From the NCBI RefSeq assembly GCF_036365525.1, contig NC_090417.1, forward strand, positions 2,342,832 through 2,406,831: a stretch of DNA of 64,000 bases, read 5' to 3'. Below the pieces are notes generated by a model. It was not told the origin of the DNA and did not search any database. It worked only from the letters and a program-made list of their open reading frames with translations. The translations under genes were made by a program, and so were the position numbers. Positions 3,589-62,720 of this stretch are shown here, in pieces. The stretch comes from Heterodontus francisci. Lineage: Eukaryota. The first letter of the stretch is position 1; each line of letters starts with the position of its first letter.

Positions 3589-3736
3589 GTAAGGGCTGCA
3601 GGCGTTAAAAGAGACTTTTTTGTTGTTGTTGCTGCTGCTCTTCGTCCCCGGTCTGCTTCGCAGTGATATCTTCTTGTCTGTTCTAGTGAACGTCGAGGCA
3701 AGCGCGAGGAACACGACCTTATTTACCAATTAGCTT

Positions 3737-4212
3737 GCCGGACTGAACATTGAGTTCAATCATTTCAGAGCATAACGGGGCCCACTTTTTATTTTTAGTT
3801 TTTTATTTATTTTATTTTAGTATGTTTCTGCTGCGCCTACCCACTTTTTCATGTTTGTGCTTCGGGCCAGGGCTGTTCATTTTTCTGTCAGTTAACACAC
3901 TCTCTGCACTGACGCTTTGTCTTTCACCACACCGTTAACATACCGTTTGCCTTTGCTCCATGACCTTTTGGTCAGTTATTCTCTGTGACCTTGTCCTATC
4001 AACACCTCTTTTGTTGTGTCTTGCCCCACGCCCACTTTATTTGCTTAAAGCCTATTACAGTTCTAACATTTGCCAGTTCTGATGAAGGGTCACTGACCTG
4101 AAACGTTAACTCTGCTTCTCTCTCCACAGATGCTGCCAGACCTGCTGAGTATTTCCAGCGTTTCTTGTTTTTATTTCAGATTTCCAGCATCTGCACTATT
4201 TTGCTTTTATTA
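3737..4212 (+). mobile_element. 5'-truncated Penelope-like element (last codons of ORF plus 3' pLTR), related subfamily
   Basis: Starts gccggactgaacattgagttcaat, identical to the PLE ORF end at 20421-20444; ends with the same ...ttttgctttta tail as the left arm at 16943. Confidence 0.85.
4075..4111 (+). ncRNA. Minimal type I hammerhead ribozyme motif in PLE pLTR
   Basis: AGTT-CTGATGA-A-GGGTC-ACT-GACCT-GAAAC-GTT-AACT: intact CUGAUGA and GAAA core, stem II, palindromic ACGT stem III, 4-bp stem I. Confidence 0.7.
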
Positions 4213-11292: not shown

Positions 11293-11779
11293 TTCCCCAA
11301 GACTCTCAGCTTGCTGGGCTAGTCATTCCACTGTCTCCCCACCCATCAAGTGCTGTGTAGTTTGGCAAGAGAATAGGAAAGGGCAGCTGGGGTGGTTGTT
11401 CGTTAGGAGAAAATGACGAGTGCCTCCTTGGGCTACTCAGAGGATGCCAAGAGAGACAGCGGTAAATGACCAATTTGCCTGTTTAAACTCCTGCATGTTT
11501 GTGTTGAAATCATCATAGCACTGAACTTGGGGATGTAAAAATGGCAAGGAATTCCTCCGTTGTGTTGACTGGAGTAGCCATTGTATCGTTCAGCACCTCG
11601 AAGAGAAAGTCAAGCCTCAGTACTTCCTGCTGTAAAATTGAGAGCTTTGTTAGATGACAGTATGAAAGGGTGTGGAACCAATGCAGGAAAGTCCAGGTGC
11701 AGACTCAGCAAGGATCTCATGTAGAGTAGCCAACTTGGGCGATACAGATCTGCCATGACCTTCTGTAAGGTTGAGCTGT

Positions 11780-12023
11780 GGGGTTGCCAACTCGCCAGGT
11801 TTGTTCTGGAGATTCCAGGAGTTAAAGGTTAATTTCCTAGACGCTGCTGCAAGCAAACTAGGAGAAAAATTATAAGGGCATTTCACAAATTGTGTGTTTC
11901 TTCACTTGCTTTGAACATTTTCCTGTATGAGTTGTAAAAATATTGGCAACTGTTAGCAGTTGAAGGTGGGAGGTCATGTGATAAAACCTCCAGGAATATG
12001 CCCTGCCAAAGTTGGCGACTCTA
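11780..12023. mobile_element. Non-autonomous hAT-like MITE with (TA)GGGTTGCCA-type terminal inverted repeats
   Basis: ggggttgccaact at 11780 and agttggcgactcta ending 12023. Confidence 0.5.
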
Positions 12024-12519
12024 CATGAGATCCCTGCTGAGTCTGCACCTGGACTTGGCAAAAGTCACAGTGCATTCGAGTCTATGAAGCCAGGGATTGC
12101 TCAGAATGGTCTAGTGCTCACCAGTGTTCAGAATTTGGCCACTGTTCGGGTGACTGTGAAACATGGTATCCAGTGGTTTGCTCCAAGTCTTCCCTGACTT
12201 GTGGACGTTGCTAGATATCTAAGCATAGTCGATCCAAGCTGGCAGGTCCTGCTCTGAGCAAATAATAGTTGAACTGTATACCACACAAAGCCAGAACAGT
12301 CTGGTTTCAGACTAACTGCCATGTCTGTGTGCCAGTTGCCTATCGAGTATGAAGTTGAACTGCAGAGTTGTCAGTGTTGGGGAAACTATGTTAAGAGTGA
12401 TATTACCACGAATGAGAAACAGACTTGTGGCTAGGAGATTTGTTTGATCTGAATTCAGTTCCAAGGGGGTAGGAGCACCAGCTGTCTATTATTTGGATAA
12501 ATGTCAGAGCTGTGAAAAT

Positions 12520-16200: not shown

Positions 16201-19200
16201 CAAAAGGTTTTAGTGTCCTGGCAACATCTCTCTCTTAACCAGCAGCAAAACTAGTCATTCATCTCATTGCTGTTTAATCGGATGCTACAGGCACAGAATG
16301 GCTGCCGTGTTTGGCAACATAATAACAGTCACTGCACTCGCTGTGTTTTCGAATATTTCCGTGTATCTAAGTATAATGCTGTACACATTCCTGCAGGTGA
16401 CGTGGCGAGACATTGCTGGGCTGGATGAGGTTATCACTGAGCTGCAAGAGACAGTCATTCTCCCATTCCAGAAGAAACATTTATTCCACGGATCCAAACT
16501 CTTCCAGCCACCAAAAGGTGAAAGTTGATTTGTACTTGGGGGTGGAGACAGGGTGGTAGCTGTGGTGCAGAGTACTATTTAGTGCATTTAATAACGCCAT
16601 TGTCTCGTGACTTGCCATCAAGCGTTATATTTAACACTGCACAACACGCAAATTGGAAAATCTTCATCCACCAGTTACAGTATGGGTTAGATACAGGGGA
16701 GAACTCCCTCTGCACTGTCCCATCAAACACTCCCAGGGCAGCTAAAGCATGGGTTCAATACAGAGTAAAGCTTCCTGTACCATGTCCATCGAACGCTCCC
16801 AAGGCAGGTCCAGCACGGGGTAGATATAGAGAAAAGCTTCCTCTACACTGTCCATCAAAGTTCCCTCGACAGGAGCTCAGTTGAGCCCAAAATAATGTTT
16901 GCATTTTAATGTATTGTATTTACCTGTCCTTGAGCTGTCAGTAAAAGCAAAATACTGCGGATGCTGGAAATCTGAAACAAAAACAAGAAATGATGGAATC
17001 ACTCAGCAGGTCTGGCAGCATCTGTGGAAAGAGAAGCAGAGTTAACGTTTCGGGTCAGTGACCCTTCTTCGGAACTGACAAATATTAGAAAAGTCACAGA
17101 TTATAAACAAGTGAGGTGGGGGTGGGGCAAGAGATAACAAAGGAGAAGGTGCAGATTGGACCAGGCCACATAGCTGACCAAAAGGTCACGGAGAACAGGC
17201 AAACAATATGTTAATGGTGTGTTGAAAGACAAAGCATTAGTACAGATTAGGTGTGAATACACTGAATATTGAACAGCAGCAAGTGCAAACCTGAAGAAAA
17301 ACAACCTGAAAAAAACAGTGGGTAAGCAAACTGAACAAACTAAGATGAAATGAAATAAATGCAAAAAAAGATTGTAAAAAATGTAAAAGGGAAGAAAAAA
17401 CAACTAAAAATGAAAGTAAAATGGGGGGCTGTCATGCTCTGAAATTATTGAACTCAATGTTCAGTCCGGCAGGCTGTTGTGTGCCTTATCGGTAGATGAG
17501 ATGCTGTTCCTCGAGCTTGCGTTGATGTTCACTGGAACACTGCAGCAATCCCAGGACAGAGATGTGAGCATGAGAGCAGGGGGGAGTGTTGAAATGGCAA
17601 GCAACCGGAAGCTCAGGGTCCTGCTTGCAGACTGAGCGGAGATGTTCCGCAAAGCGGTCACCCAGTCTGCGCTTAGTCTCCCCAATGTAGAGGAGACCAC
17701 ACTGTGAGCAGCGAATACAGTATACTACATTGAAAGAAGTACAAGTAAATCGCTGCTTCACCTGAAAGGAGTGTTTGGGGCCTGGGATAGTGAGGAGAGA
17801 GGAGGTAAATGGGCAGGTATTACACCTCCTGCGATTGCAGGGGAAGGTGCCCTGGGACGGGGACGAGGTGGTGGGGGTAATGGAGGAGTGGACCAGGGTG
17901 TCGCGGAGGGAACGATCCCTTCGGAATGCTGACAGGGGAAGGGAGGGGAAGATGCGACTGGTAGTGGCATCACGCTGGAGGTGGTGGAAATGGCGGAGGA
18001 TGATCCTTTGGATATGGAGGCTGGTGGGATGAAAAGTGAGGACAAGGGGAACCCTGTCACGGTTCTGGGAGGGAGGGGAAGGGGTGAGGGTAGAGGTGCG
18101 GGGAATGGGTCGGACACGGTTGAGGGCCCTGTCAACCACAGTGGGGGGAAATCCTCGGTTGAGGAAAAAGGAGGTCATATCAGAAGCACCGGCATGGAAG
18201 GTAGCGTCATCAGAGCAGATGCGTCGGAGACGGAGAAACTGGGAGAATGGAATGGAGTCCTTACAGGAGGTAGGGTGTGAAGAAGTGTAGTCGAGGTAGC
18301 TGTGGGAGTCAGTGGGCTTATCATGGATATTGGTAGACAACCTATCCCCAGAGATGGAGACAGAGAAGTCGAGGAAGGGAAGGGAAGTGTCAGAGATGGA
18401 CCATGCAAAGGTGAGAGAAGGGTGGAAATTGGAAGCAAAGTTGATAAAGTTTTCTAGTTCGGGGCGGGAGCAGGAAACGGCACCGATACAGTCATCAATG
18501 TACTGGAAAAAGAGTTGGGGGAGGGGGCCTGAGTAGGACTGGAACAAAGAATGCTCGACATATCCCACAAAAAGACAGGCATAACTAGGACCCATGCGGG
18601 TACCCATAGCGACACCTTTTACTTGAAGGAAGTGCGTGGAGTTGAAGGAGAAGTTGTTCAATGTGAGAACAAGTTCAGCCAGGCAGAGGAGGGTGGTGGT
18701 GGATGGGGACTGGTTGGGCCTCTGTTCCAGGAAGAAGCGGAGAGCCCTCAAACCATCCTGGTGGGGGATGGAGGTGTAGAGCGATTGGACGTCCAATGTG
18801 AAGAGGAGGCGGTTGGGACCAGGAAACTGGAAATTGTCAAAATGACGTAGGGCGTCAGAAGAGTCACGGATGTAGGTGTGAAGAGACTGCACCAGCGGAG
18901 AAAAGATAGAGTCTAGATAGGAAGAAATAAGTTCAGTGGGGCAGGAGCAGGCTAGATAGGACACAAAGTCCTATCTAGACTCTATCGTTTCTCCGCTGGT
19001 CCAGTCTCTTCCCACCTACATCCGTGACTCTTCTGACGCCCTACGTCATTTTGACAATTTCCAGTTTCCTGGTCCCAACCGCCTCCTCTTCACATTGGAC
19101 GTCCAATCGCTCTACACCTCCATCCCCCACCAGGATGGTTTGAGGGCTCTCCGCTTCTTCCTGGAACAGAGGCCCAACCAGTCCCCATCCACCACCACCC

Positions 19201-21616
19201 TCCTCTGCCTGGCTGAACTTGTTCTCACATTGAACAACTTCTCCTTCAACTCCACGCACTTCCTTCAAGTAAAAGGTGTCGCTATGGGTACCCGCATGGG
19301 TCCTAGTTATGCCTGTCTTTTTGTGGGATATGTCGAGCATTCTTTGTTCCAGTCCTACTCAGGCCCCCTCCCCCAACTCTTTTTCCAGTACATTGATGAC
19401 TGTATCGGTGCCGTTTCCTGCTCCCGCCCCGAACTAGAAAACTTTATCAACTTTGCTTCCAATTTCCACCCTTCTCTCACCTTTACATGGTCCATCTCTG
19501 ACACTTCCCTTCCCTTCCTCGACTTCTCTGTCTCCATCTCTGGGGATAGGTTGTCTACCAATATCCATTATAAGCCCACTGACTCCCACAGCTACCTCGA
19601 CTACACTTCTTCACACCCTACCTCCTGTAAGGACTCCATTCCATTCTCCCAGTTTCTCCGTCTCCGACACATCTGCTCTGATGATGCTACCTTCCATGCC
19701 GGTGCTTCTGATATGACCTCCTTTTTCCTCAACCGAGGATTTCCCCCCACTGTGGTTGACAGGGCCCTCAACCGTGTCCGACCCATTCCCCGCACCTCTA
19801 CCCTCACCCCTTCCCCTCCCTCCCAGAACCGTGACAGGGTTCCCCTTGTCCTCACTTTTCATCCCACCAGCCTCCATATCCAAAGGATCATCCTCCGCCA
19901 TTTCCGCCACCTCCAGCGTGATGCCACTACCAGTCGCATCTTCCCCTCCCTTCCCCTGTCAGCATTCCGAAGGGATCGTTCCCTCCGCGACACCCTGGTC
20001 CACTCCTCCATTACCCCCACCACCTCGTCCCCGTCCCAGGGCACCTTCCCCTGCAATCGCAGGAGGTGTAATACCTGCCCATTTACCTCCTCTCTCCTCA
20101 CTATCCCAGGCCCCAAACACTCCTTTCAGGTGAAGCAGCGATTTACTTGTACTTCTTTCAATGTAGTATACTGTATTCGCTGCTCACAGTGTGGTCTCCT
20201 CTACATTGGGGAGACTAAGCGCAGACTGGGTGACCGCTTTGCGGAACATCTCCGCTCAGTCCGCAAGCAGGACCCTGAGCTTCCGGTTGCTTGCCATTTC
20301 AACACACCCCCCTGCTCTCATGCTCACATCTCTGTCCTGGGATTGCTGCAGTGTTCCAGTGAACATCAACGCAAGCTCGAGGAACAGCATCTCATCTACC
20401 GATTAGGCACACTACAGCCTGCCGGACTGAACATTGAGTTCAATAATTTCAGAGCATGACAGCCCCCCATTTTACTTTCATTTTTAGTTGTTTTTTCTTC
20501 CCTTTTACATTTTTTACAATCTTTTTTTGCATTTATTTCATTTCATCTTAGTTTGTTCAGTTTGCTTACCCACTGTTTTTTTCAGGTTGTTTTTCTTCAG
20601 GTTTGCACTTGCTGCTGTTCAATATTCAGTGTATTCACACCTAATCTGTACTAATGCTTTGTCTTTCAACACACCGTTAACCTATTGTTTGCCTGTTCTC
20701 CGTGACCTTTTGGTCAGCTATGTGGCCTGGTCCAATCTGCACCTTCTCCTTTGTTACCTCTTGCCCCACCCCCACCTCACTTGTTTATAATCTGTGACTT
20801 TTCTAATATTTGTCAGTTCCGAAGAAGGGTCACTGACCCGAAACGTTAACTCTGCTTCTCTTTCCACAGATGCTGCCAGACCTGCTGAGTGATTCCAGCA
20901 TTTCTTGCTTGAGCTGTCAGTGTCTTTTTCATCCAGACCCTATGCTTGGGTAGGTTTGCCCATAAGGTTTGAATATTTGGTATCTCAGAAAAACATGAAT
21001 TGTAATATCTGTCAACATTTCAAAAGAGAAATTAAAGATAGATATTCAGGGTATCAAGGGATATGGGGTTCGTTAGGGAAATGGCATGGAGGTAGAAGAT
21101 CAGACATGATCTAGTTGAATGGTGGAGCAGGCTCGAGGGGCCGAATGGCCGCCTCCTGCTCCTATTTCCTATGAAAAACCAAGTCAGTGTTTCTGGTGCA
21201 AACAAGGTCATCAACCTGAAACGTTGGCCTTTTTTTCTTTCAGGCCCTGACTGTGCAGTTTCGCTATTTGTAGCACTTTATGATTGATTTCAAATGAGAG
21301 CCTTCTTTCTGTGCCTGTGAACAGGGGTGTTGCTGTATGGCCCTCCAGGCTGTGGGAAGACCCTCATCGCCAAAGCCACAGCGAGTGTCGCTGGCTGTCA
21401 TTTCATCAACATGCAGGCCTCAACATTAACTGATAAGTGGTATGGAGAGTCGCAGAAACTGACAGCTGCTGTCTTCTCTTTGGCTGCGAAAATTGAGCCA
21501 TGCATCATATTCATTGATGAAATAGGTAGGTGCTGTCTTTGTGGAGAATGATCATTTGGAGTTCTAGAATCTTTGTTTGTCTGAACCTGATAGAGAAAAG
21601 AGGGATCCATATGTAT

Positions 21617-56965: not shown

Positions 56966-57650
56966 CGCTCAGAGGAGGAGAAGGAAGGGGAAAGGTTTGA
57001 AGTAAGAGCTGGAGTTCAGTTACTGACTTTTGGGTTTGATCTAAAGTCTTTGATTGCAGTTGTCTTGCAGTTCTCGTTGGGGCCCAGTGCACACTTTCAA
57101 ACTTGTTTAGCTGCAGGAGTCTTCTCTCTTGAGGTTTGAGTGGCTTCTGTTGGTCCCTGGAATTTCGTGAGTGAGAGAGAGGGAGACAGGAAGAGACCTT
57201 CCTTCTCTGTTGTCTTCAAATGGCAGTCTCTTCTCAGACTGTTCTGTGTGCACAATTCAAACAACTCCAAGTTGGCCAGCCGGTTAGTCATGTAACTAAC
57301 TCTTTCTTTGGAACAACCTCTCCTGCAGTTTGAGCATTTCAAAGCTTACTAATGCACTCGGTGGGATGGGGCTGGGGGCTGGGGGCGGGTGGTGGCGGGG
57401 TGTTGAGTGCTGTCTCTTACACAGATAAGATGTGGATCATCACTCTTGCCCAGACCAATCTTTGTTCATTGAATCAGTGAGCAGTTCCATTGTCTCTCTT
57501 CTTCAACTGTCTTTTAGAATGCAAAATGTGCAGCCATGTTTCAGTGGTCTTTTACACCGTTGTTTTTTTTCAGTTCAGTAACAGTTTAAATTAATGTTCT
57601 GTATGACAAAATTAATGTCTCATTTTGGCAGGTGTGGTTTTCAGGACACA
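56965..57650 (-). mobile_element. Possible partial LTR
   Basis: Composition and motifs (agtcatgtaact, GA-rich block, terminal ACA) resemble 33788-34722; interrupts L2. Confidence 0.35.
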
Positions 57651-58199
57651 TTACTGTTTGTGGGAGCTTGTTATGTGTAAATTGGCGTACACATTTCCCG
57701 CATTACAACAGTGACTACACTTCAAAAAGTACATCATTGACTGTAAAGTGCTTTGGAACATCCTGAGGTCGTGAAATATACTATATACATACAAAAATGT
57801 CTTTTTTTTAACTATGTACGGATGCCCTGGAGAGTACACATTGGGAGATGGCCAGGTACAGGGAGACTAAAACCTCAGAGGGTTCATGTAGCTAGCTGAC
57901 TTGTTAGTGTACAGAAGCCCTAGGAATTCACAAAGGGACCCCCATGTGGTACTTCAGGTGTTGGTGCCTTCCAGATACTGCATTTACATTCCGTTCAGGA
58001 AGAGGAGTATAAAGGAACGTTATTGTGGAAATGACAGGGTTAAATGTACTTTTTAATTAATTTATAACTATTTCTTATGTACCAGCCAGCTGTCTCCAAA
58101 AAATGCTGGAGTGTCAACATTGTAAGAGTTGCATGTAGAACAAGCACTTAACCTTGTAGTTGGATTATTTGTCAATTACGAACCACTTACAATCATAAA

Positions 58200-58505
58200 G
58201 AATTTGCATTTTGTTAGCGCTTTTCATGAACTTGGGATGTCCCAAAGTGTTTTAAACCAAAGGAATACTTTTGAAATGTAGGAACTGTTGTAATGTAGGA
58301 AACATGGCAGGCAAGTTGCGCACAGCAAGCTCCCACAAACAGCGATGTGAGAATGACCAGATAATCTGTTTTTGTGATTTTGAGTGAGAGATAAATATTG
58401 GCCAGACACTCAGGAGAATTCCCCTACTCTTCTTTGGAATAATGCCATGGGATCATTTACATCCACTTGAGAGAGTAGATGCGGCTTGCTTAAACATCTC
58501 ATCTG
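58200..58505 (-). mobile_element. SacSINE1-like Deu-SINE, partial
   Basis: Reverse complement similar to 28890-29170. Confidence 0.75.
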
Positions 58506-62399: not shown

Positions 62400-62720
62400 C
62401 CCATTTACACCTCCTCCACACCCATCCTTTGTTTCTTTACTTGCCCTATTACCATCCCCTTTTTGTGTTGCGCCATCGTTCGCTTTTGTCATTTAACCTC
62501 TCTTGCTTTCCCCCCTAGCCTTTTTGTTCTTTACTCTTCCTCCTTTCCCTGCCTCTGTACTTGCTTCAAAACCTATTCAACCTCTAACTTTATCCAGTTC
62601 TGATGAGAGGTCGTCGACCTGAAACATTAAATCTGTTCCCCTCTCCACAGGTGCTGCGTGTTTCTCGCGTTTTCTCTTTTTATCTCAGATTTTCAGGATC
62701 CACAGTATTTTGCTTTTGTT
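62400..62720 (+). mobile_element. Older stand-alone PLE pLTR
   Basis: Pyrimidine-rich body, hammerhead, ctctccacag.tgctgc...cagattt...cagtattttgctttt tail as in 3737-4212. Confidence 0.8.
62596..62632 (+). ncRNA. Hammerhead motif in older pLTR (stems I and III decayed)
   Basis: AGTT-CTGATGA-G-AGGTC-GTC-GACCT-GAAAC-ATT-AAAT. Confidence 0.5.

Follow-up and report, generated by a model that had tools for sequence, protein, structure and literature searches.

Head-to-head copies of a likely Neptune-type Penelope-like element within one target-site duplication in an ATAD1 intron

Inverted arrangements of Penelope-like elements (PLEs) have been described before, as a sequence-only reading of the present locus had stated. 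In Adineta vaga, Pen2a_Av and Pen2 carry a head-to-head inverted, 5'-truncated copy at the 5' end and a palindrome at the junction (PMC3846280), and the Fig. 2 legend of PMC8557442 includes this layout and states that all the PLE insertion variants were observed. One target-site duplication (TSD) of 8-10 bp surrounds the unit in A. vaga PLEs (PMC3846280), and published PLEs have a one-ended tail of 31 bp or 30-40 bp (PMC3846280, PMC8557442). Biochemical work on a purified PLE, PAc of the Poseidon clade from Anolis carolinensis, showed that both target strands are cut and extended, that the protein is predicted to form a dimer, and that its reverse transcriptase (RT) starts in vitro at two sites, downstream of the hammerhead, that delimit the tail (PMC11167929). 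Neither inverted products nor cDNA joining figures in the available account of PAc, which also describes the later PLE integration steps as not yet validated (PMC11167929). In L1, two-template inverted insertions are ascribed to RT extension of both target ends followed by their joining, an inferred step, with the TSD kept, whereas twin priming starts a second cDNA internally and leaves an inversion with 1-10 bp lost or doubled (PMC11702581).

The window analyzed here, a stretch of 64,000 nucleotides, contains a palindromic PLE insertion with the following features.

16397-16517, + strand: ATAD1 exon preceding the insertion (matches residues 68-108 of 7upr_C, E 6e-15)
16929-16942, + strand: left TSD copy, exact 14-bp repeat (n=2 in the window)
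16943-18966, - strand: left arm, 5'-truncated PLE copy with 2,018 family-templated nt
16943-16983, - strand: PLE tail, 41 nt, left arm only (from arm alignment and family read 3' ends)
17040-17076, - strand: left-arm pseudo-LTR, hammerhead-like motif of the minimal type (recognized by eye from the description in PMC4209133)
18952-18978, no strand: junction palindrome, 11-bp stem and 5-nt loop
18969-20907, + strand: right arm, a tail-less PLE copy of 1,939 nt, 5'-truncated
18969-20459, + strand: ORF remnant of 496 codons, open, with RT core, thumb, Cx4CxxC linker and GIY-YIG with CCHH
20815-20851, + strand: right-arm pseudo-LTR, hammerhead-like motif of the minimal type (recognized by eye from the description in PMC4209133)
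20908-20921, + strand: right TSD copy, exact 14-bp repeat
21325-21420, + strand, end approximate: next ATAD1 exon with Walker A (residues 108-138 of 7upr_C, E 4e-13)

The layout is the published PLE layout, already known and not an oddity: an inverted 5'-truncated copy and a junction palindrome lie within one TSD, and a tail is present on only one of the two ends. The TSD is 14 bp, the tail is 41 nt, the partial tandem of the published scheme (PMC8557442) is absent, and the inverted copy makes up nearly the whole insert (1.94 kb), compared with about 0.2 kb, one pseudo-LTR, in Pen2a_Av (PMC3846280). The locus also differs from L1 twin priming, as had been claimed, in that 1,939 nt are duplicated and not merely inverted, and both arms end at or near family 3' termini. 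PAc belongs to another clade and lacks the Zn-finger linker.

The palindrome is confirmed as genuine, with one 14-bp TSD around two 5'-truncated PLE copies. The direct repeat CTTGAGCTGTCAGT flanks it exactly at 16929-16942 and 20908-20921, extends no further, and occurs only twice in the window when both strands are scanned. Such a match is expected by chance at a given place with a probability of 3.8e-9, or 6e-6 when 41x41 boundary choices are allowed. Self-comparison, as the sequence-only reading had suggested, returned a single inverted repeat, 16981-18922 against 18969-20910, with 99% identity. Strict alignment of 16984-18922 with 18969-20907 (1,939 nt) is free of indels and contains 16 substitutions, in line with the approximate count made by eye, and the arms are head-to-head with their 3' ends outward, also as described. 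The limits of the right arm stood; the inner end of the left arm, placed earlier at 18952, reaches 18966 according to the family reads. Both arms are indeed 5'-truncated, but their 5' ends are 38 nt rather than about 30 nt apart after this extension. A spacing this small has a chance of 0.025-0.038 if the truncations were independent, and the right arm is fully nested within the left. A search of the window for further copies found no second inverted pair; it found two older copies of the PLE 3' end with 70-72% identity.

The ORF remnant lacks about 300 N-terminal residues and encodes RT followed by a C-terminal GIY-YIG nuclease in one frame, the arrangement of EN+ PLEs. The Pfam matches to RVT_1 (E 6e-6) and GIY-YIG (E 1e-3) were both under the curated cut-offs. 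When 8,000 candidates were scored, 733 matched at E<=1e-30, and the longer ones share the order of RT and GIY-YIG; a metagenome scan confirmed one of 100 candidate stretches, by a weak 74-residue match (L001). A Cys pair within the GIY-YIG core and two downstream His constitute the CCHH motif, whose residues are kept in most homologues covering that region. Both arms encode Cx4CxxC and FFQYIDD, the latter pointed out earlier as a shared oddity; R precedes YIDD in 11/11 homologues. Cx4CxxC had been taken as a mark of the Neptune clade, and the motif is present, but it does not single out Neptune, since a Cx2-5CxxC linker between RT and nuclease is common to Neptune and Nematis (PMC8557442). The spacer from CxxC to the Cys before GIY is 23 residues here; in the supplement of PMC8557442, judged by eye, it exceeds 20 in 2/2 Neptune rows and is below 12 in 3/3 Nematis rows. 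Homologue P0006 (53% to the query) closely resembles the Neptune1_Ap row, by eye. Neptune1_Nv, Neptune1_Ap and Neptune-1_Ac likewise have RT, Cx2-5CxxC, a C-terminal GIY-YIG with CCHH and a long post-CxxC spacer, whereas only 496 C-terminal residues are left here. Linker spacing and homologues indicate that the element is likely a Neptune-type EN+ PLE.

The PLE family is very abundant in public reads (about 1.3% of the reads in one run), and its reads show two 3' termini. The reads were mapped from four of 24 listed public runs. In public run X21, family 3' ends pile up at 16942/16943 (8,255 and 1,779 reads), and a second 3' terminus lies at 16979 (2,214 reads), which puts 36-37 nt between the two family termini. 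The first of them is where the left arm ends; the end of the right arm corresponds to 16984 in left-arm coordinates, 5 nt away from the second terminus. The last base of the left TSD copy equals the next base of the family, and most family reads align through 16942. RNA folding of the tail region gave structures no better than shuffles (z -0.67), and we claim no start-site stem-loop. In the hammerhead-like motif at 20815-20851, helix II of 5 bp, an unpaired base and a G-C closing pair were recognized by eye. Both arms have C in place of U at core position 4, which is canonical in the two older copies in the window. An Rfam search gave no hammerhead match; its eight weak matches were below gathering scores, and the best three fell on the central hairpin.

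That central hairpin (18952-18978) has a z score of -5.8. Family reads depart from the window after 18953, and their next seven letters equal window 18960-18966 (2,477 reads in X21, agreement 0.91); one X5 contig and one X6 contig give the same letters. Since the family reads skip from 18953 to 18960-18966, the letters at 18954-18959 are a 6-nt insertion, and it mirrors the 5' end of the right arm. The seven family nucleotides are followed by two non-family nucleotides (18967-18968). The bases preceding the right-arm start showed no pairing with the left arm beyond 18922, and therefore no microhomology for an internal fold-back was seen. Among the best 15 of 557 family joints by support, for which polarity is not given, four others connect opposite strands with offsets of 0, 27, 108 and 171 nt (P 7e-4 under uniform independent truncation). 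One of the four, at 17046, is present in raw reads only, and a joint at 18908/18988 was excluded from this count, as the window matches itself there. The central junction was absent from those best 15 of 557 joints, from 24 of about 116,400 pieces and from 40 of 171 differences; read mapping covered 16250-19035, which could not span the whole palindrome.

The 16 arm differences comprise 10 derived substitutions in the left arm, which also has a stop codon at 17486-17488, and 6 in the right arm (P=0.45), of which one is seen directly in reads and five are deduced. Three of the 16 are CpG decays, and nine are transversions (P=0.06 against two-thirds transitions). Within the ORF, nine differences are non-synonymous and three synonymous (dN/dS 0.97; P=0.011 under omega 0.2), and the arm-arm differences look neutral, with dN/dS about 1. 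The proposal that they date the insertion like an LTR pair thus holds as to neutrality, but as a clock they give a rough minimum only, because conversion between arms would lower divergence and RT or assembly errors would raise it. The arms have ten minority alleles in common, each carried by no more than 1.7-17.6% of family reads; this implies either a common source for the arms or later conversion. Templating by two different master elements was set aside, countered by the shared rare alleles and the neutral differences.

A single integration event is very probable. The single TSD, the ends at or near two family termini and the ten shared alleles point to one event and one source, and this part of the mechanism put forward earlier is supported; its other part, priming from both nicks, fits the biochemistry, but the sequence of the footprint cannot separate it from fold-back self-priming. 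That one Neptune-type PLE event had both target nicks priming cDNA on RNA from one source strikes us as an evenly balanced proposition. The element nuclease would nick the two target strands at positions 14 bases apart, and cDNA would be primed from each of the free ends on RNA from one source copy. The tailed left arm may have begun on the top strand at the distal start site, and the tail-less right arm on the bottom strand close to the internal one. Synthesis of both cDNAs would stop after about 2 kb, at points 38 nt from each other, which one shared broken RNA or a paired complex would lead one to expect. The right cDNA end would then jump onto the left cDNA end with two untemplated bases, snap back to add 6 nt, and re-anneal; fill-in would yield the palindrome and the TSD. 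The TSD, arm limits, one-sided tail, junction letters and shared alleles are read directly, and the priming roles and the order of steps are our proposal. More tentatively, and with greater doubt, a paired PLE protein may have copied one RNA twice from two start sites onto both nicks and linked the cDNA ends through an end-to-end jump and snap-back.

Both-nick priming is favored by in vitro extension of both strands and the two RT start sites (PMC11167929), as well as by the arm ends at or near two family termini, the lack of pairing bases at the turn and the parallel of L1, where joining of two RT-extended ends is likewise proposed (PMC11702581). Against it count the in vitro element being Poseidon rather than Neptune (PMC11167929), the ascription of the PLE tail to nuclease resolution (PMC8557442), and the nested right arm, the 38-nt spacing and the near-mirror joints, for which fold-back needs no shared RNA. 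In addition, neither a spanning read nor an empty site was seen in the mapped runs. In such a fold-back, also one event, the top-strand cDNA (left arm) would turn back at its 3' end and copy itself into the right arm; the copy would end, or be cut by the nuclease, close to the tail boundary, and joining of the second nick to that end would follow. This is possible but doubtful. Nesting at both ends, the junction hairpin and the four joints agree with it, the shared minority alleles follow automatically, and self-priming was proposed for head-to-head junction palindromes, there on an antisense template (PMC3846280), a reading that also weighs against both-nick priming. However, no bases pair at the turn, a second mechanism must stop the copy near the internal terminus, whereas in vitro data show RT starting at such a site, and the joints are subject to the limits of support, polarity and raw reads given above.

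The remaining explanations are less probable. Long palindromes can undergo gene conversion, and two insertions at the same spot at different times, or an older pair, might have been homogenized; CpG decay accounts for two of the ten shared alleles, several alter conserved residues (such as the R before YIDD, 11/11 homologues), and their rarity is similar to that of left-arm private alleles (1.6-13.7% of reads, P=0.09), as would hold for copied post-insertion changes. We consider this improbable, as one TSD frames both arms with none seen at the center, and the published one-unit layout agrees with arm ends at or near two family termini. Two tests, both of low power, gave no sign of conversion: the longest identical tract, 472 nt, is unremarkable (P=0.19), and long tracts show no excess of shared alleles (8/10, P=0.32). 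Templated insertions and hairpins are end-joining footprints, and the junction resembles them, but inverted duplication of a single-arm insertion by host DNA repair is very improbable, since the duplicated segment runs precisely up to the TSD without any flanking sequence, and its end is 5 nt away from a terminus common to the family. A fold-back sequencing or assembly artefact is scarcely credible: no contig or read spanning the center or the whole palindrome was among those listed and transversions are 9/16 (P=0.06), but the 16 differences with derived alleles on both sides (10/6) and three CpG decays speak against it, and an artefact would not produce a TSD or a tail that is confined to one side and ends at a family terminus, nor would it run on into the next ATAD1 exon. 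Public runs X5 and X6 were not taken as orthologues and are probably trace DNA: both have zero depth on the flank or exon (X21 hardly covers the flank), and their element depth tracks the X1 profile at 1.5-6.7e-5 and 0.9-19e-5 (rho 0.87 and 0.59).

The PLE pair lies in the intron between the two exons of ATAD1, the outer mitochondrial transmembrane helix translocase; for the short downstream exon other AAA ATPases outscore ATAD1, but it is contiguous with the preceding exon. ATAD1 pre-mRNA would carry a 1.9-kb near-perfect hairpin, on which RNA editing or small-RNA processing would be likely to act. The value of the locus for PLE biology is modest, as the layout is published and one locus leaves the mechanism undecided. 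It is nevertheless a clean footprint, in which tail, TSD and junction are readable base by base, and the reads show, in a probable cartilaginous fish, two termini known in vitro from a lizard element. Copying by a paired PLE, if true, would account at once for the tail on one side only, the palindromic junction and 5' ends that nearly coincide. The size of the family would allow a genome-wide test, and with its recurrent near-mirror joints this genome could settle the completion step of PLE integration by counting.

The insertion consists of two arms of a Penelope-like element (PLE) placed head to head, with their 3' ends outward, inside one target-site duplication (TSD).

Layout of the insertion
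16929-16942: left copy of the TSD, a 14-base direct repeat
16943-18966, minus strand: left arm
16943-16983: tail, a 41-nt 3' extension of the left arm
18969-20907, plus strand: right arm
20908-20921: right copy of the TSD

The 14-base repeat has only these two copies in the whole window and could not be extended further; its chance is 3.8e-9 per place, or 6e-6 with generous freedom of the boundaries. The arm pair is the longest inverted repeat of the window, and 16984-18922 aligned with 18969-20907 over 1,939 nt with 16 substitutions and no indels, bearing out the palindrome and TSD proposed by a sequence-only reading. Two other close inverted repeats (11689-12056, 52 nt, 94%; 57647-58349, 130 nt, 74%) did not match the element. 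The insertion is 3,965 nt long. ATAD1 exons on either side match consecutive residues of 7upr_C (68-108, then 108-138), and the site is, judged from sequence, an ATAD1 intron. This intron (16518-21324) spans 4,807 nt, of which the insertion accounts for 3,979.

The right arm has 496 open codons and the left arm a stop near the ORF end. Reverse transcriptase (RT) and GIY-YIG domains follow in order (Pfam; both matches under its cut-offs). Among 8,000 scored candidates, 733 homologues passed E 1e-30, the closest named ones being from sharks and rays (60-69%), so that a cartilaginous fish is the probable host. Aligned with homologues, the element shows the CCHH nuclease motif and a Cx4CxxC linker and lacks ~300 N-terminal residues. 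The linker had been read as the mark of Neptune; Neptune does carry it, but PMC8557442 assigns it to Nematis as well. The spacer after the linker is long, like two of two Neptune rows and unlike three of three Nematis rows compared from the supplement of that paper, where the Neptune1_Ap row resembles homologue P0006 by eye. For vertebrates, a 2026 preprint (10.64898/2026.07.22.740005) gives Neptune and Poseidon, with Hydra and Naiad in a coral only. A minimal hammerhead-like motif lies close to each 3' end (by eye against PMC4209133); an Rfam search gave no hammerhead matches. The window also has two older copies of the family 3' end (3679-4208 and 62595-62717; 70-72%), each of which includes the tail and a hammerhead motif with the canonical core; the core of the motif in the arms departs from theirs at one position.

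Reads of 4 of the 24 listed public runs (X1, X5, X6, X21) were aligned on 16250-19035. In X1 the left flank is unchanged across 482 nt at depth 6.5. The family is very abundant, with 154,485 of 11,989,820 X21 reads aligned (1.3%; a rough guide only, X21 being a capture library). Family 3' ends pile up at 16942/16943 (8,255 + 1,779 reads) and 16979 (2,214 reads). The left arm stops at the first terminus and the right arm at left-arm coordinate 16984, so that the tail is confined to the left arm. Precisely where the hammerhead-like motif starts, at 17075-17076, 980 + 864 X21 reads depart from the element, and depth is highest over 16994-17086, which suggests many short copies of ~135 nt comprising ribozyme motif and tail. 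The left flank also contains short, diverged repeats (16680-16860) with many family reads and joints going back 134-135 nt; they belong to an abundant repeat that is built of tandem units. X5 and X6, labelled as other organisms, gave near-identical element contigs over 16969-18953 at low depth, which tracks X1, and no flank; horizontal transfer is a less probable source than trace DNA.

Past 18953, the next seven letters of the family reads are those of 18960-18966; the left arm, previously ended at 18952 from a correct start at 16943, thus extends to 18966 and contains a 6-nt insertion mirroring the start of the right arm. The 2 nt after 18966 are absent from the family sequence. The junction stem is 11 bp, and the arm 5' ends are close together as proposed, 38 nt apart rather than ~30 nt. 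Four other opposite-strand joints, 0-171 nt apart and of polarity not given, lie inside the arm among the 15 best-supported joints of 557. One of them, 17209/17236, was seen in both X1 and X21. Its X1 depth was 56.5, ~9x the single-copy flank, with 47 reads and 39 starts in X21; it may be an inverted junction that has itself multiplied. Neither the centre junction nor an empty site is among the read rows listed (16250-19035, four runs).

Reads show that at ten of the sites where the arms differ, the left arm has the derived state. One is seen to be derived in the right arm, and five more were assigned there because X5/X6 contigs or outgroups side with the left arm, 17134 being the least firm assignment. 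There is no skew in the 10:6 ratio (P=0.45). The 16 differences comprise 7 transitions (3 CpG decays) and 9 transversions; those in the ORF are 9 non-synonymous and 3 synonymous (dN/dS 0.97). Both arms carry ten alleles that are each present in at most 1.7-17.6% of family reads (five further shared sites, with family polymorphism of ~35-55%, were excluded). One of the ten, Q in QYIDD, is a CpG decay at 17%, at a residue that is R in 11/11 homologues. The arms would so be copies of one already mutated source, or converted later; two tests for conversion between them were negative, both weak. Divergence is 0.41% per arm (0.24-0.67%). With a rate of 7e-10 per generation, taken from another species, the epaulette shark (PMC10587355), the age would be about 6 million generations, or 3-30 million over the interval of the rate. 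Dating the arms like an LTR pair yields a rough figure, which RT and assembly errors inflate and conversion deflates.

We consider the chances evenly balanced that both arms were made by priming on the two nicked target strands, as the sequence-only reading proposed. In PMC11167929, a purified PLE cuts and extends both target strands and starts at two RNA sites bounding the tail, a direct route to paired arms. Each nick would prime one arm, one per RNA start site; for their 5' ends to be nearly equal, both would have to be copied from one RNA or be stopped in a coupled way, and the junction would form by an end-to-end jump, short snap-back and re-annealing. Fold-back self-priming is a serious, somewhat less probable rival. 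It expects nesting and near-mirror joints without extra assumptions, and PMC3846280 took head-to-head junction palindromes as self-priming; yet the copy must end near the internal terminus, which PMC8557442 would credit to nuclease resolution. No genome-wide test between the two was found in the literature searched, most subscription papers being outside its scope, including 2005-2006 PLE reviews in which the same model may already appear.

Two insertions, or heavy conversion, are unlikely. Later DNA duplication seems very improbable, and an artefact scarcely credible.

PLEs have already been described with each of these features: a 5'-truncated copy in inverted orientation, a tail on one side, a palindrome at the junction and a TSD enclosing the unit. 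Only the extent of the inverted copy, which mirrors almost all of the 2-kb insert, is unusual here. The earlier distinction from L1 twin priming was upheld, although L1, too, has been inferred to have two RT-extended ends joined in opposite orientation (PMC11702581). We conclude that the insertion is real and its layout of a known PLE type. As a consequence of it, the ATAD1 pre-mRNA would carry a 1.9-kb hairpin.
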